Source: Pseudomonadota bacterium (GTDB taxonomy: Bacteria; Campylobacterota; Campylobacteria; Campylobacterales; Sulfurimonadaceae). Taken from it: 64,000 bases of DNA. Numbering within the stretch: the stretch's first letter is position 1; each line of letters starts with the position of its first letter. Below, in pieces: positions 36,287 through 41,778 of this stretch. The stretch spans positions 105,235 through 169,234 of the forward strand of contig JAZDQA010000014.1 in assembly GCA_043797085.1 (NCBI GenBank), in the 5' to 3' direction. Under the pieces are notes generated by a model, which saw only the letters and a list, made by a program, of their open reading frames with translations, was not told the DNA's origin and searched no databases. Position numbers and translations under genes: made by a program.

Positions 36287-36319
36287 AGTTTAAATGAGGA
36301 AAGGACAGCTGAGTGAAGA

Positions 36320-36375
36320 TTCCACATGGTCGGAGCGACCTGACTCGAACAGGCGACCTCTACCACCCCAAGGTA
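36320..36375. repeat. att direct repeat (duplicated tRNA-Pro 3' portion)
   Basis: TTCCACATGGTCGGAGCGACCTGACTCGAACAGGCGACCTCTACCACCCCAAGGTA, identical to 41694-41749. Confidence 0.97.
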
Positions 36376-36519
36376 AAATTGTAGCCCTAAAACACGGGCT
36401 TTTCGAGCTTTAGTCACCCACAATTAGTAGATATTAGGTGATAGAAGGTGACGAATTAGGTGACACAAAAAAAATAATTAACGCTTATGCTTTATTCTTT
36501 CAACTAAGTCCAATAATCG

Positions 36520-37470
36520 TCAAAGAATACCTATTGAACGTAGCTCAAGTTGTTGTATTTCCAATAGGTATTCTTTGCTACTATTGAGGATCCTTTTGGT
36601 ATCTTGCCTAACGGTAAATTCAAACCTAGTCAGGTCATAGTCCAAATCATTCTTAGCCCTTTTGTCATAGCAACATATAGTTCTATTGCTATTGGAATCA
36701 CTTTTTTGGAAATAGACCGAGCGTTTAACATCCCCTTTTGGATAGAGCTTCAACTTATGCCCTTTTTTTCTTGTTTTATTGACTCTCCATAGATACGGTA
36801 CGATGAGGTTTTTAATAGCTGTATCAAAATCTATAGACAAATCTACATGAAAGTCATAACCCATCAATACAAGCTTATTTTCTTCTCTATCATTCGGTTC
36901 GTAATGGTGCAATATACGATTCAACAGTTCAAAGCGCACTGATCCTTTGTCATGGTCAAGCTGTGACAGTCCATAAAGTTCTAAGCTGATATAGCTAGAT
37001 CGTTGATAGTCTAAAATCCAATGCCTCACACCATCAAACTCTATAATCCAAGCACCATTCGTATACACAAAGCGTTCGAACATATCTTTTTTATTTCCGA
37101 AGGTTTTATAGAATTCTGCTAATACTTCCTTCTCATGTGAAAATGCCACCCCATCACTTTCTGTAGTAAATTTCACCTGATGAAGCGTTGCACCAACAGC
37201 ATCACACATAGCTTTTAAATTCATATGATTGCAACTGTAACACTTTCTAACCTTTGGAAAACCTATTCGTAAGGTATCGAAGCCACTAGATAAAATAGTA
37301 TAATTAAACCTCCACCCACTTTTACTCTTTGTAAGCTGTCCACGAAAAGTTTTTTGTAGTATCTTAGGCATGATTTTATCAGCCAATCGAATTAATGCAG
37401 GGCTTAATTCTTTCAATTTATCATCCTTTTTTGTTTCTAAAGTCACCTGCAAGAGGCTCTCTATGAGCAT
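36520..37470 (-). CDS. Putative Rep_trans-like rolling-circle initiator/relaxase
   Basis: YDFHVD...SVYF...ICCYDK...LTRFEFTV in the motif order of Rep_trans; inside the island. Confidence 0.55.
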   Translation of the reverse strand: MLIESLLQVTLETKKDDKLKELSPALIRLADKIMPKILQKTFRGQLTKSKSGWRFNYTILSSGFDTLRIGFPKVRKCYSCNHMNLKAMCDAVGATLHQVKFTTESDGVAFSHEKEVLAEFYKTFGNKKDMFERFVYTNGAWIIEFDGVRHWILDYQRSSYISLELYGLSQLDHDKGSVRFELLNRILHHYEPNDREENKLVLMGYDFHVDLSIDFDTAIKNLIVPYLWRVNKTRKKGHKLKLYPKGDVKRSVYFQKSDSNSNRTICCYDKRAKNDLDYDLTRFEFTVRQDTKRILNSSKEYLLEIQQLELRSIGIL

Positions 37471-37548
37471 TTCAGCATCGTCAAATATTATATAAGACTT
37501 TTGAACGTTCGTGTCTTACAAATACCTTAAAATGCTTTATACAAGGTA

Positions 37549-38106
37549 TTATGCACCATTTGAAGCAGGTAAGTGTCTATACAGTGTTGGCACAGAGATG
37601 CCAAGGCTCTTGGCAACGTCTTTAGGCGGTGTTCCAGCTTCTAATAGCTTTTTAGCAGATTCGATTTTAGTATCAGTCATTAATCTTTTTCGCCCACCTG
37701 TACGCCCAAGGCTTTTAGCAACTTCAAGTCCTGCTCTAGTTCGCTCTACAATTAGCTCTCTTTCCATCTGAGCTAAAGCACTCATCACATTAAAAAAGAA
37801 ACGTCCTGAAACTGTAGAGGTATCAATAGAATCCGTAAGACTCTTAAAATTAATTCCTTGTATGCCAAAGTCATCAATTAGGTTGATGAGGTCTTTAGTA
37901 CTTCTTCCTAGCCTATCCAACTTCCAGACTACAAGCGTATCACCTTTACGTAGCATCTCAATGGCTTTTGTCAATCCCTCTCTGACTGTTCTAGTCCCAC
38001 TAGCTTTATCTTCAAAGATTCTCTCACAACCTGCATTTGTTAAAGCTTCTAACTGCAACGTAAGGTTTTGATCTTGGGTAGAAACACGAGCGTAACCAAT
38101 TAACAT
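37549..38106 (-). CDS. Serine recombinase (Hin/Pin resolvase-invertase family)
   Basis: GYARVST, KLDRLGRS, ERELIVERT..G, C-terminal HTH (SVPTLYR). Confidence 0.96.
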   Translation of the reverse strand: MLIGYARVSTQDQNLTLQLEALTNAGCERIFEDKASGTRTVREGLTKAIEMLRKGDTLVVWKLDRLGRSTKDLINLIDDFGIQGINFKSLTDSIDTSTVSGRFFFNVMSALAQMERELIVERTRAGLEVAKSLGRTGGRKRLMTDTKIESAKKLLEAGTPPKDVAKSLGISVPTLYRHLPASNGA

Positions 38107-38121
38107 CTTAGCTCCTTTGTA

Positions 38122-38254
38122 TTCTCAAATCTCATCTTTATTATAGCAATTGATAACTTAATATTGAGAAAGGTTTATAAGAATAGATAAAGCCCTGTTT
38201 TACCTGAATAATTCTTTTGAGAATATCATTCTTACAATCGGTGGTTTATGAGAA
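38122..38254. promoter_or_regulatory. res/hix-like recombinase binding region overlapping the recombinase promoter
   Basis: TTCTTACAATCG-GT-GGTTTATGAGAA (38229-38254) resembles hixL; further TTCTCA/TGAGAA/TGATAA half-sites; minus-strand TATAAT at 38140-38145. Confidence 0.65.
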
Positions 38255-38389
38255 TAAATAGTCCACCGTGTGCCGATATATTAAAGATTTCTTTGGTATT
38301 TTTTTGTGGAGGTGGAGGTTATTAGGTTGGAAGGTTATCCTTCGGCTTTAGGGTAGCCGAAAAACTCCTGTGGAGATTATAAAACTATT

Positions 38390-39025
38390 TTATTTAAGAA
38401 GAGACAAAATTTCTCGCTCAAGCTTCCCAGTTGACACACACTCTACTACAGATCCAGTTTGTGGGAAAGATGCACTAGCAGATGAATTAAATGATATACT
38501 AGCGACACTAGTGTTTGAGATACCATTTCCAATAGTTAGAGAAGTAACTTTTTTTGCCACTATATAACGGGTATTTGCAGTTACTCGTGTCTGATTTGGA
38601 GAAATTTCTTCAAAAATCAAATTCATTCTTCCCTCAAGAGACATATTCCGTTGAATATGGAAAAGTTGCCCTCCGGTCATCATTTCATAAAACATGTGCT
38701 CTTTCGAGGCAGGGAAATCATACGTACGTTCTCCAGCACCATTTTTGACATATGAAGTAAGACGACCACAATCTATGTAGCTTTCTGGGTCACCCGTGTA
38801 GCTTATATTGATCAATCCAGATGATTTATCAAGATTATTGATAACAAAAAATTGTTTTCCAAGCTCTGGAACAGCTGAGTTCCAAACTAGTTCACGTGAT
38901 TTATCAATTATTTTTTGGTTTGATATCCCATTTTGTTTTATTGGAGGCGTATAATCCACCTTTCCTACGCATCCTGACAAAAGCAAAGCCCCTAAAATAC
39001 ATAACACTAATGAGTAGACTTTCAT
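38390..39025 (-). CDS. Lipoprotein of unknown function (island cargo)
   Basis: Lipobox LLSGC; 211 aa with two further Cys (YIDCG, VECVSTGKLE). Confidence 0.8.
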   Translation of the reverse strand: MKVYSLVLCILGALLLSGCVGKVDYTPPIKQNGISNQKIIDKSRELVWNSAVPELGKQFFVINNLDKSSGLINISYTGDPESYIDCGRLTSYVKNGAGERTYDFPASKEHMFYEMMTGGQLFHIQRNMSLEGRMNLIFEEISPNQTRVTANTRYIVAKKVTSLTIGNGISNTSVASISFNSSASASFPQTGSVVECVSTGKLEREILSLLK

Positions 39026-39033
39026 TGTAACTC

Positions 39034-39621
39034 CTAAAATTTAAATGTCAAACCGACTTGAGTAGACATACCGCCACCATTGCCGATGAGATCATTTGTA
39101 GAATATCCAGCTATGCCACCATGCCATGAGCATGTCCCTGAGCCTGTACTTTCTGAGGTTGTACCATCATTACATACGGTATAAAGCTGATCGTCAGTTA
39201 AATCAAAAAAATATTTATAACCCACACCGGCATTTAAAGCAAGCTTATCGGTAAAACTATAAGTAAGTATCATACCAACTGGAATAGATAACATCGTATT
39301 TTTATTTGAATACCACGGCACATCTAACTGACCAACACCAACTCCAAGGTCATAACCAATCCGTAGGTTTCCTTGATGAACAATATCCCCATTCAATCCA
39401 ATAGTAACATCGTAGTAATTAATATCATTTTTACTATCACTTTGAACATTTCCCTCGATATAAAAACGAGCCACATTGTCCCATGAATACCCAACTGTTC
39501 CACCGCTCATTTCAACATCAATAGCTTTGAAATTAACATTTTGAGAGGAATAATCAACATATAATTCTGAAGCCGATAAATTTAATCCTACTACTAGCAA
39601 GAGACTAGGCAAAAATTTCAT
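39034..39621 (-). CDS. Outer-membrane beta-barrel protein with a DUF3761-like insert (island cargo)
   Basis: Signal peptide, amphipathic beta-strands, C-terminal beta-signal VGLTFKF; CNDGTTSESTGSGTCSWHGG insert; ATG 39621 with AGGAGG RBS. Confidence 0.75.
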   Translation of the reverse strand: MKFLPSLLLVVGLNLSASELYVDYSSQNVNFKAIDVEMSGGTVGYSWDNVARFYIEGNVQSDSKNDINYYDVTIGLNGDIVHQGNLRIGYDLGVGVGQLDVPWYSNKNTMLSIPVGMILTYSFTDKLALNAGVGYKYFFDLTDDQLYTVCNDGTTSESTGSGTCSWHGGIAGYSTNDLIGNGGGMSTQVGLTFKF

Positions 39622-39644
39622 ATTCCTCCTTTTTAGTTGCAAAT

Positions 39645-39721
39645 AGGTAAATAATACCTTCTGTAATTTTATGATAGGGCAATATTCCCTTATTAAAACT
39701 TAAAATAGGTAATTCTTACCC
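39645..39721. promoter_or_regulatory. Three imperfect 15-bp palindromic operators at 31-bp spacing
   Basis: AGGTAAATAATACCT (39645), AGGGCAATATTCCCT (39676), AGGTAATTCTTACCC (39707). Confidence 0.7.
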
Positions 39722-39778
39722 TGTTGTTTCGTTATAAGATGTTATGTAACTTTCTACCACTTAAAAAAAGAGGTAGTT

Positions 39779-39958
39779 ATGACTCAACGAGATATGGCGG
39801 GTATTTTGGGCATAGATGTTAAGACCCTCAGAAACTGGCGCAAGGATAAGCCTGAGCTTTACAAAAAAGTTATGCAGGGCTTCCAGTTTGAAGAAGCCGT
39901 CAAAGAAGCTAAAGAGCATTATGAGAAGTTGAAGAGGCTTGCAGACAAAGACTTTTAA
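39779..39958 (+). CDS. 59-aa HTH DNA-binding protein (not in the ORF track)
   Basis: Manual translation: MTQRDMAGILGIDVKTLRNWRKDKPELYKKVMQGFQFEEAVKEAKEHYEKLKRLADKDF*; GAGG RBS. Confidence 0.8.
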   Translation: MTQRDMAGILGIDVKTLRNWRKDKPELYKKVMQGFQFEEAVKEAKEHYEKLKRLADKDF

Positions 39959-40194
39959 AACATAGCCAAATCATCTACCATAATTTACCTTAATCAAACA
40001 TTAAGCATATTTACGCTATAATGTACCCATCCTACATGATATAGTGTCGTGTTATTGCTAATCAGGCAATACCCACTTGCAACATAGACTTCTCTCTTGG
40101 ATAGACTTTGTTCTCTAGAAACAAATATCCAAACATATAAAATTAATAGCAAAACTGTTTTCACGTGAGGTACTTTATTTTAAAGGACTTCTTA

Positions 40195-40434
40195 ATGTCT
40201 AAAACACAACAACGATATGTTCGAACCAATACTGCTGCACACTATTTAGATGTGAGCAAGGACTTTCTCAAACAGCACATGGGAAATCTATTTTTTGAAG
40301 GTATTCATTACTATAAACCTCAAGATTGCCGACTAGTCTTATGGAAACTTGATGCACTTAATGAATGGGTCGAAGGCAGATTGTCTCCTCTGTCCCCTGA
40401 GAACAATTTAATACTTAATCAATTGATCGCTTAG
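40195..40434 (+). CDS. Excisionase/AlpA-like winged-helix protein
   Basis: YVRTNTAAHYLDVS...EGIHYYKP...LVLWKLDALNEW; directly upstream of the integrase; ATG 40195 with AAGGA RBS. Confidence 0.7.
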   Translation: MSKTQQRYVRTNTAAHYLDVSKDFLKQHMGNLFFEGIHYYKPQDCRLVLWKLDALNEWVEGRLSPLSPENNLILNQLIA

Positions 40435-40502
40435 TTGCTATAATCACAATCTACTAATTGTGGTTGTGGCTTTTCTCTTATAAATGAAAAGGACATAACA
40501 TT

Positions 40503-41666
40503 ATGAAAATAAATACTGTAAAAAGTATCGTAGGAAAAAACGGCAAGCTAGTCGTTAGGTTCTTTGACAACGCAGGCAAGATCAAGCAAAAGACACTTAA
40601 TCTAGCCGACACAAAAGCAAATAGAAAAAGCGTTTCACAAACGATTCCAGCATTTGAAAAAACTTTACGAGATAAAGCTGAACAAGGTGCTAAATTACCA
40701 ATTCATTTTGGCTATTACGCTGATAAGTATTTAGAACAACTTACAGCAACTGGTCATACAAAAACGATTGCTCATACAGGTCGCATTAAAAAGATGTTAG
40801 AACATTTTGGATCACAAACAGATATAAATAACATCACTGAATTAGCTATTGAAGACTTTTTTCAAGGATTAAGGTGCAAACGTGAGACCAAACTCGATTG
40901 GCTTGTAGTCATGAGGGGTGTGTTTGATAAAGCACGTAAGGGAAGAGCTATAGAGAAAAATATTGCTGAATCGTATAAGTTGCCCTTAGAAGCTTCTATA
41001 AATGATGAAAGTGCGGTTGAGCCTTTTGCTCTCGATGAGGTAAAAAGATTACTCTTGCACTCTAAAGGAATGGTTCTTCACAATTACCTCGGTATTGCAT
41101 TTCACTTAGGAACGCGTCCTGAAGAAACGATTGCACTAAAGATTGAAGATGTTGACCTTACAAGTGGAACAGTACAGATAGAGCGAGCCATTACGAAGGG
41201 AGTTATTAAGAGCCCTAAGACAAAGGCTTCAAAACGTTCGATACCATTGCCAGATCATGCTAGAGTATTCTTTAGTGAACTGATAAAAAAAGCGAAAGAA
41301 AAAAGTAGTCTTTACTTGTTCAGTGATGCAAATGGAATACACCTCAATGATATAGAAGATTTGAGAGGTAAAAAGTATCGAGATGGTGCTTGGTATCAAT
41401 TGCTAAAAAAAGCAGAAGTAACACCTCGTAAACTAATGCAAACACGTCATACATTTGCGGTAATGGCAATTCGTTCTCAAGAATACACAATGCAGGAAGT
41501 TGCATCTATTCTAGGTCACAGCTCTTTAGCTATGATTATTTCACACTATGGAAAGCATCTTGGAGCTTCTCACATGAAAGTTGCTAGGTCAGTTAATATT
41601 TTTAAAGATCAAGGTGACGTATTGGGTGACGCTGAAATAAAAGTTGAAATCAGAGAAGTTGCTTAG
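40503..41666 (+). CDS. int: Tyrosine recombinase / phage-type integrase
   Basis: GTRPEE (R), PKT (K), QTRHTFA, LGHSS, HY (catalytic Tyr); adjacent to the att site. Confidence 0.95.
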   Translation: MKINTVKSIVGKNGKLVVRFFDNAGKIKQKTLNLADTKANRKSVSQTIPAFEKTLRDKAEQGAKLPIHFGYYADKYLEQLTATGHTKTIAHTGRIKKMLEHFGSQTDINNITELAIEDFFQGLRCKRETKLDWLVVMRGVFDKARKGRAIEKNIAESYKLPLEASINDESAVEPFALDEVKRLLLHSKGMVLHNYLGIAFHLGTRPEETIALKIEDVDLTSGTVQIERAITKGVIKSPKTKASKRSIPLPDHARVFFSELIKKAKEKSSLYLFSDANGIHLNDIEDLRGKKYRDGAWYQLLKKAEVTPRKLMQTRHTFAVMAIRSQEYTMQEVASILGHSSLAMIISHYGKHLGASHMKVARSVNIFKDQGDVLGDAEIKVEIREVA

Positions 41667-41700
41667 AAGATAATAAAGCCCTATTTATAGGGTTTCCACA

Positions 41701-41778
41701 TGGTCGGAGCGACCTGACTCGAACAGGCGACCTCTACCACCCCAAGGTAGTGCGCTAGCCAAACTGCGCTACGCCCCG
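41701..41778 (-). tRNA. tRNA-Pro(GGG)
   Basis: CGGGGCGTAGCGCAGTTTGGCTAGCGCACTACCTTGGGGTGGTAGAGGTCGCCTGTTCGAGTCAGGTCGCTCCGACCA; cloverleaf, GGG anticodon, encoded CCA. Confidence 0.97.

Follow-up and report, generated by a model that had tools for sequence, protein, structure and literature searches.

A probable integrative rolling-circle element at tRNA-Pro in Sulfuricurvum and its small modular family

The element and its integration site

The subject of this analysis is a small element at positions 36320 to 41749 of a 64,000-nt stretch of contig JAZDQA010000014.1, here called the window, from the 96% complete genome of a groundwater sulfur bacterium of the genus Sulfuricurvum (Campylobacterota). 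The element sits at a tRNA-Pro gene. From left to right it carries genes for a putative rolling-circle initiator (Rep), a serine resolvase, a lipoprotein, an outer-membrane barrel protein, a 59-aa helix-turn-helix (HTH) regulator, a probable excisionase (Xis) and a tyrosine integrase (Int). An initial annotation had counted seven intact open reading frames (ORFs), and all seven are open, with the start codons of rep, the barrel gene and xis revised. It had also reported no capsid or conjugation genes, and searches of the proteins against Pfam, PHROGs and NCBIfam gave zero matches to such families. The sole packaging-related matches are weak PHROG matches of the 59-aa HTH protein to TerS (E 1e-4 to 3e-3); we rejected a TerS identity, as these reflect the HTH fold only. 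The interior has a GC content of 36.2% against 40.8% for the genome, a value about as low in 57 of 1171 genomic segments of the same size.

The element is bounded by two 56-nt direct repeats, 100% identical and 5374 bp apart from start to start, just as had been annotated. Each repeat reaches from tRNA nucleotide 30, and so takes in four bases of the anticodon stem ahead of the loop, to 7 nt beyond CCA. The left copy (36320..36375) consists of the 3' portion of tRNA-Pro that was displaced, together with 7 bp more, and matches the empty site of genome G002. The right copy (41694..41749) restores the 3' part of the target gene, which is called as tRNA-Pro(GGG) at 41701..41778 on the minus strand. 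A terminator-like hairpin (41679..41692, minus strand) from the terminator scan lies between the end of int and the 3' end of the tRNA. An Rfam scan of four loci gave no match, the tRNA itself included. The flanks are a chemoreceptor gene and, behind the tRNA, a PF02578 gene. Among 24 genomes of the same genus, three (G002, G012 and G019) have an empty site with both flanks joined by one repeat copy, and the G002 site is identical to the repeat at 56/56 positions. Most of the remaining genomes have other DNA between the flank genes or a different synteny.

This tRNA gene has other occupants. In the empty site of G012 (L031:1229-1295), the tRNA 3' end bears a tandem duplication of 11 bp, which may be the scar of an earlier integration. 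G011 has another integrase adjoining this tRNA, and G005 carries a different integrase-bearing element at it. The latter, 5.2 kb long (L023:6128-11353, G005:C28, tRNA-Pro(GGG)), encodes an integrase, small ORFs, a distant member of the Rep family and a TerS-like protein (phrog_51, E 4e-18); because of the TerS-like gene we regard it as similar to the phage-inducible chromosomal islands.

The integrase gene (40503..41666, plus strand, 387 aa) matches PF00589 at E 8e-13 and has a weak match to an arm-binding domain. Residues R205, K239, R315, H339 and Y349 are invariant in all seven aligned integrases. Its closest relatives among 66 genomes of the genus, the set used for the genus-wide surveys below, are 57-59% identical and sit at tRNA-Val rather than tRNA-Pro. 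Just inside both ends of the element are GGTGAC-type repeats spaced 10-12 bp apart (36436-36466; 41612, 41624). Those at the left end, near 36436, 36446 and 36458 with an inverted copy near 36414, make up a candidate group of arm-type integrase sites (36410..36466), and the two at the right end fall in the last codons of int. In a circle these candidate arm sites would flank attP on both sides. Upstream of int is a 79-aa gene (40195..40434, plus strand, ATG at 40195) whose product has no family match in Pfam, PHROGs or NCBIfam. It is weakly similar to an HTH_17 protein of another element of this genome, L038 (E 0.05), and in three other loci (L155, L157 and L158) an integrase gene immediately follows its homolog. 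Because of its position and these homologs, we read it as probable Xis. An 18-nt motif is found at 36415..36432 (minus strand) and again, 17/18 identical in the opposite orientation, at 40449-40466, inside a terminator-like hairpin between xis and int (40437..40470, plus strand) that appeared in the repeat and hairpin scans. A comparable pair arose in 1 of 200 shuffles, and the first 16 nt have no further site in the genome at up to two mismatches. The motif is a candidate Xis/Int site or nick site; a likeness to the nick loops of pT181 and MOBT was considered but could not be confirmed. The attachment repeats, candidate arm sites, catalytic residues and empty sites in kin together bear out the annotation of an int/xis module with the anatomy of an excisable element.

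Replication, resolution and cargo genes

Rep (36520..37416, minus strand, 298 aa) lies in a frame open from 37470, and its most likely start is TTG at 37416, where homologs begin and a Shine-Dalgarno sequence AAGGA lies upstream. It has no match in Pfam, PHROGs or NCBIfam, and PF02486 (Rep_trans) is absent for Rep and all 27 aligned relatives at E<=1. A Rep profile run against PDB sequences gave nothing useful. Structure is more informative. Atlas structure rows for Rep name PF02486, and a model built from the 27 sequences reaches pLDDT 91. Foldseek searches with it return only six matches at E<=0.001, all of them chains of RepSTK1 or RepDE (E 1e-7 to 6e-5; RepSTK1 1e-7). An independent VIA search places the same two proteins at ranks 1-2, with Z 8.6 and 7.5 and a root mean square deviation of 4.3-4.4 over 178-194 residues. 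In the numbering of alignment A2, residues D46, D187, Y249, K251, R263 and E265 are conserved in at least 90% of the 27 sequences. In the relaxase RelSt3, as described in PMC6499999, the acidic ligands D72/D177/E280 and the Tyr-x-Lys pair Y252/K254 are shown to be essential. The conserved set of Rep is equivalent to these by motif order rather than by residue-level superposition. RepSTK1 (4CIJ) and RepDE (4CWC/4CWE), which are plasmid initiators of the pT181 family, share this fold, D/D/E metal site and Tyr-x-Lys, with 12-14% identity to Rep. The fold, the catalytic Tyr-x-Lys and the three acidic residues uphold the original call of a rolling-circle-like Rep, and the modelled structure supports an initiator of the Rep_trans fold from a branch that profiles do not recognise.

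The Rep family is small, with 12 close proteins among 5.8 billion and 20 at E<=0.001 among 1.84 billion representatives. Close homologs occur in 2 of the 66 genus genomes, 14 of 66 when distant ones are included, and 12 of 401 across the order. No tblastn match was found in 72,556 plasmids or 50,697 phages, and the viral contigs hold no locus related to Rep, the barrel protein or Int, which speaks neither for nor against element DNA in filamentous particles. Most of the distant homologs inspected are in small islands linked to tRNA or tmRNA genes with an integrase adjoining. A wider set of small Sulfuricurvum islands (L061-L074) has distant Rep_trans-like proteins of 216-335 aa, most of which have an integrase and a tRNA or tmRNA as neighbors.

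The 3' end of rep is covered by a long hairpin in single-stranded DNA (ssDNA) at 36511..36586 (minus strand). Its folding (z -3.75) is equalled in 0 of 200 shuffles and is the strongest of 133 segments scanned in the element; it is a candidate single-strand origin, packaging signal or terminator. Promoter and terminator scans gave 18 and 4 predictions against 18.5 and 3.5 in shuffles. As this is no excess, we take individual predicted sites of these kinds as leads only.

The resolvase (37549..38106, minus strand, 185 aa) has both a catalytic domain (PF00239, E 8e-46) and an HTH_7 domain (PF02796, E 1e-10). Next to it, at 38120..38254 (minus strand), is a res site composed of a 26-bp crossover-like site of 12-2-12 geometry (site I, 38229-38254) and accessory TTCTYA half-sites toward the resolvase start. 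With both domains and an adjacent multi-subsite res site in single copy, the protein fits the resolvase that had been annotated. The best PHROG match is to phrog_125, 'DNA invertase' (E 3e-78), and site I, with its 12-2-12 geometry, presumably resembles hix, so a recombinase that flips the cargo has to be weighed. Such an invertase is the most improbable of the alternatives treated here. A second full two-armed recombination site was not found in the element, and on this account resolution is favoured over inversion. Moreover, extra half-sites adjoin site I as in res sites, and the orientation of the cargo is identical across all six loci compared. On the strength of the single full site, we rejected the invertase identity.

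The HTH regulator (39779..39958, plus strand) has weak Pfam matches to HTH families and is divergent from an arm that comprises the cargo, resolvase and rep genes. In the divergent promoter region (39645..39721) are two palindromes, AGGTA-N5-TACCT, at 39645 and 39707. All four complete elements compared (the present one and L041, L042 and L043, described below) have a pair of such palindromes, 62-63 bp apart, in the space that separates the cargo from the HTH gene. They look like operators, which the HTH protein would bind. The same 59-aa family is found at many other chromosomal sites (L107-L110 and L112-L123), where the genes divergent from it are restriction-modification-like or otherwise variable and both int and rep are absent. 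The family looks like a general controller of cargo cassettes.

Between the regulator and the res site are two cargo genes. The lipoprotein (38390..39025, minus strand, 211 aa, lipobox LSGC) has no match in Pfam, PHROGs or NCBIfam and none in Foldseek at E<=0.001. Its fold is of the helix-grip, BamC-like type; the BamC-like match (Z 9.6 over 103 residues) is near the level of unrelated helix-grip and KA1 folds and names no function. It belongs to a wide, unnamed family (655 matches, about 60% identity). Homologs occur in five viral contigs, directly behind the phage repressor gene in two, on the same strand a few genes past the repressor in two, and among accessory genes in one. The position behind the repressor is the usual place of genes expressed in the lysogen. 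The two homologs directly behind repressors (L125:3992-4621 and L126:3992-4624) are in contigs of temperate phages. We regard this family as a candidate for an unnamed superinfection-exclusion family. The barrel protein (39034..39621, minus strand, 195 aa, ATG at 39621) has a DUF3761 Cys loop and a C-terminal Phe, and its 29 matches include relatives in Photobacterium and Acinetobacter.

A modular family of small elements

Three further complete elements share the order int-(xis)-HTH-cargo-(resolvase)-rep, at two other sites and with other integrases. In L041 (G076:C74), of 4984 bp with a 66-bp repeat, and in L042, of 4572 bp with a 48-bp repeat at tRNA-Arg, the integrase is of the DUF6538 type and xis is missing. 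L043 is 5543 bp long with a 23-bp repeat; no tRNA was called there, and its integrase, of a third type, is 24% identical to the present one. Against these three, the HTH proteins are 84-91% identical and the Rep proteins 40-46%, and the resolvases of L041 and L043 are 84-87% identical. The res site is conserved in L041 and L043; L042 lacks the resolvase and retains a degenerate site. Similarity in DNA to L043 is 92% from the barrel gene to the HTH gene and 77% from the resolvase to just past site I, where it ends. The center has thus been shuffled between different integrase and rep ends. Two partial loci, L105 and L111 (G046), show the layouts HTH-cargo or int-xis-cargo-resolvase; rep is not visible, since the contigs end. 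In the resolvase and HTH genes, synonymous differences outnumber amino-acid differences (81/26, 69/30, 21/5 and 17/9). A different rep-end hairpin, related between L041 and L042, lies just past rep in those two (z -3.5 and -4.5). The initial annotation had suggested a search for related int, rep and resolvase elements, and with the three found, four complete elements of 4.6-5.5 kb have the same order at three sites.

The cargo slot is exchangeable and holds mostly exported proteins. A hydrophobic N-terminus is found in 14 of 17 cargo ORFs (10 of 12 families, six loci) as against 264 of 892 host ORFs on five contigs (30%). The binomial p of 2e-4 is rough, because the hydrophobicity threshold was set after the cargo and the related elements had been inspected. 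PADLOC found nothing in 11 proteins of the element family. As to the effect of the cargo, surface exclusion of phages or competing elements is a guess.

Parts of the element are also present in eleven sequencing runs from five studies, and one run has over half of the element's sequence words. The results given here come from contigs of runs X1, X2, X3 and X6; the seven others (X4, X5 and X7-X11), with a small share of the words, are left aside. In the RNA run X1, the seven listed records between 35641 and 41133 match the window without a mismatch. A contig of this run extends over the two cargo genes and the res site into the beginning of the resolvase gene, and another joins 36319 to 41694, as an empty site would. 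Gaps in transcript coverage were not taken as silence. We rejected the empty-site joint as proof of excision, since it is a possible assembly chimera: the 56-nt repeat is longer than the 31-letter assembly words, the ends are uncovered, and hairpins lie just inside both ends. The DNA runs X2 and X6 come from two other studies. In X2 (record 13) a relative spans int to the right repeat with 26 differences in 1070 nt, and in X6 (record 23) a relative spans the left repeat to rep with 33 differences in 520 nt. Possible deletion derivatives also appear among the relatives, with 36482 joined to 40507 (X3) and 36464 joined to 37422, skipping rep (X2).

Elsewhere in the present genome is a second minimal element of 5.3 kb (L038:2100-7406, G000:C14, tRNA-Ser GCT) with int, an HTH_17 xis and two cargo genes, one of which matches PADLOC PDC-S32 (E 1e-33). 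Its 468-aa protein without a family match is a candidate replication initiator.

Life cycle, helpers and comparison with known elements

We read the locus as an intact integrative rolling-circle element that hitches on a helper, at a probability of about 0.72. Judging from the anatomy, Int with Xis would recombine the pair of 56-bp repeats to leave a whole tRNA-Pro and a 5374-bp circle, and the anticodon loop is the likeliest place of the exchange. The Rep_trans protein would nick an origin through its Tyr and start rolling-circle copying by way of an ssDNA stage. The resolvase would act at the res site and split multimers. The HTH protein would control the leftward cargo, resolvase and rep arm through the two palindromic operators, and the exchangeable slot between the HTH gene and site I would supply exported proteins that probably alter the cell surface. 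Spread would depend on an outside helper, because the element encodes no transfer function; the original proposal of a helper holds for the same reason.

Several points weigh against this reading. The His of the HxxR motif is replaced by Met in the integrase, and this position is non-His in all seven aligned integrases. The structural scores of Rep are modest (TM 0.43, and a Z of 8.6 near the level of unrelated models). No double-strand origin was identified in the element, and L043 has no hairpin after rep (z -0.5). The empty-site joint in X1 may be two transcripts fused in the assembly graph. The excisable circle proposed at first stands as to its anatomy and the empty sites in kin, but no attP (circle) joint appears among the 15 of 17 joints that are listed. 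L042 has lost its resolvase and L111 has a degenerate HTH gene, so either these genes can be spared or the two copies are in decay.

The last two points would also suit a decayed, now immobile remnant of a larger prophage, integrative and conjugative element or plasmid, as would the GC3 of rep (0.34), which is close to the host median of 0.365. The perfect repeats, seven open frames and intact catalytic residues speak for an intact element instead. So do the four complete elements of 4.6-5.5 kb at three sites, and since these complete relatives share the gene order, we take them as a small modular family. A remnant is thus very improbable. An element of any origin with no present mobility is only slightly less so.

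Turning to the helper on which an intact element would depend, the genome holds one candidate, an 11.4-kb inovirus prophage bounded by 37-bp repeats (L039:913-12309, G000:C1, tRNA-Leu GAG). It encodes a 290-aa integrase, an HUH Rep (PF05840), a secretin, a Zot-like ATPase, small coat-B-like proteins, an HTH protein and an Mrr-domain protein. If the element were its satellite, the ssDNA circle would be extruded in filamentous particles, as for RS1, TLC and pDolos. Packaging by a filamentous phage such as this one is the likeliest single route, and we hold it only tentatively. Besides the co-residence of secretin, Zot and coat genes, it draws on the HTH protein of the inovirus, which is 46% identical to that of the element, a likeness paralleled by that of TlcR to RstR (PMC3545932). 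A hairpin of unrelated sequence stands at the rep end in three of the four complete elements, and the pDolos authors argue that packaging needs only a short signal (10.1101/2023.11.28.569023). Zot matches occur in 12 of the 66 genus genomes, as against 3 of 66 for VirB4-type matches over the cut-off. On the other hand, the inovirus is present in one of two carriers: G076, which is 96% complete and has the one further close Rep, gave no Zot match. The base rate is those same 12 of 66. The four elements share no DNA with the inovirus beyond chance-level matches (best E 0.013), and the operator of the element is absent from the inovirus control region at two mismatches. Genes for an ssDNA-binding protein or an anti-repressor are absent from the element as well. 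The HTH protein has homologs in 30 of the 66 genomes; of 19 loci inspected, two belong to the element family, and the others, beside genes of restriction-like or other kinds, lack int and rep. We therefore rejected HTH homology as proof of an inovirus link.

The alternative ranked next does without a dedicated helper: multicopy circles would pass by natural transformation or by generalized or jumbo-phage transduction. ComEC is present in the genome, no family member has a helper-sensing or packaging gene, and jumbo phages are described as moving islands that have only an integrase (PMC12595487). Yet ComEC is near-universal (10 of 14 control genomes) and so nothing specific, and the one terminase family tried has no match in the genome. 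Taken together, passive uptake and transduction are about as probable as filamentous packaging, and each singly is less so. A further alternative is that Rep doubles as a relaxase and that a passing conjugative element mobilizes the circle, as in the MobT-type integrative and mobilizable elements (IMEs). Rep shares its fold, and Int its type, with the streptococcal Class_IME_1, in which 21 of 45 elements are listed without a coupling protein (PMC5357655), and MobT proteins serve as both Rep and relaxase in ICEBs1 and Tn916 (PMC5704250). However, the genome, complete as it is to 96%, has no VirB4 (PF03135, PF19044) or VirD4 (PF02534) match, and the VirB4-type matches are confined to the 3 of 66 genomes mentioned. 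The helpers proposed for MobT IMEs in PMC5704250 use TcpA and Firmicutes-type pores, and the present Rep has no N-terminal HTH domain. We consider conjugative mobilization doubtful, below either of the routes just weighed.

A more specific proposal is that the elements form a self-integrating inovirus-satellite family in Campylobacterota. It would combine a Rep_trans replicon and a tRNA-targeting integrase, export in filamentous-phage particles, and a swappable, phage-blocking cassette of outer-membrane proteins or lipoproteins with the HTH gene and site I as its exchange joints. We rate this compound proposal as rather unlikely, between filamentous packaging as such and conjugative mobilization.

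A better candidate for an inovirus satellite than the present element is found in G002. It is 5.2 kb long (L158:5074-10341, G002:C14, tRNA-Leu CAA) and has int, xis, a possible ssDNA-binding gene of 88 aa and a Rep that shares 31% identity with that of the inovirus, but no coat or Zot genes; the Zot match of G002 is on another contig.

The initial annotation took the element for an unfamiliar type, and the novelty turns out smaller. IMEs that pair a tyrosine integrase with a Rep_trans/MobT protein and have no coupling protein are a described streptococcal class (21 elements in PMC5357655), and rolling-circle satellites of inoviruses are described as well. As portrayed in PMC5357655 and PMC5704250, Class_IME_1 elements resemble the present one in being small (5-18 kb). 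[quoted passage not shown] Like them, the present element has an integration and excision module of its own (int, xis-like gene, repeats and empty sites). It differs in its Gram-negative Campylobacterota host, in whose genus no TcpA-type helper is known, and in having a resolvase with a res site and envelope cargo. Its Rep is below PF02486 detection and has no N-terminal HTH. MOBT relaxases, according to PMC11389934, have an N-terminal HTH fused to the Rep_trans domain; the modelled Rep begins with a single helix followed by beta sheet, with no HTH Pfam match, and is thus without that fusion.

The descriptions of RS1 and TLC of Vibrio cholerae (PMC3545932) and pDolos of Shewanella (10.1101/2023.11.28.569023) show elements of 2.7-5.4 kb that resemble the present one in having a rolling-circle initiator, a repressor related to that of a filamentous phage and no morphogenesis genes, and an inovirus resides in the present host too. 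RS1 and TLC are reported to use host XerCD for integration at dif, and pDolos is a plasmid that replicates autonomously, whereas the present element has its own int and xis at a tRNA and a resolvase. It also has no RstB- or RstC-like genes and no detectable DNA shared with the inovirus. PICMI (PMC10803314) are similarly minimal, with an integrase, an excisionase-like gene, a replication gene and no capsid remodelling in that account, but they need alpA and a primase and sit at fis in Vibrionaceae; the present element has Rep_trans and no primase, so it is not a PICMI. The PIME (10.64898/2026.01.12.698999) are likewise integrated, replicating and helper-dependent, with modular cargo, but are described with alpA, repA, trbJ and trbL and in Pseudomonadota only; the present element is in another phylum without these genes and does not qualify. 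By analogy, it would work like a Class_IME_1 element without coupling protein and like RS1, TLC and pDolos; membership in neither group is established.

Overall, the element belongs to a small family that is new, though of a known kind; its marks are a Rep_trans branch not recognised before and a slot for envelope cargo. Our literature searches gave no description of such elements for Sulfuricurvum or Campylobacterota; supplementary catalogues of IMEs or inoviruses could hold some. The family extends the pairing of an integrase with Rep_trans, so far mainly known from IMEs of Firmicutes, to a Gram-negative groundwater sulfur oxidiser. Because profile searches miss this Rep family, elements of this sort would go unnoticed. 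The present genome, with a candidate helper and two such elements, bears on how small integrated rolling-circle elements move. The cargo of the family is almost wholly of the envelope type, unlike the defence genes reported for comparable islands, and suggests candidate exclusion proteins. For genetic work in Sulfuricurvum, Int, attP and Rep might find use as tools.

Lastly, G012 has a locus (L040:10607-11851, G012:C19) with dispersed repeat families of 35-37 nt around a small nuclease-like ORF, resembling REP/MITE arrangements.

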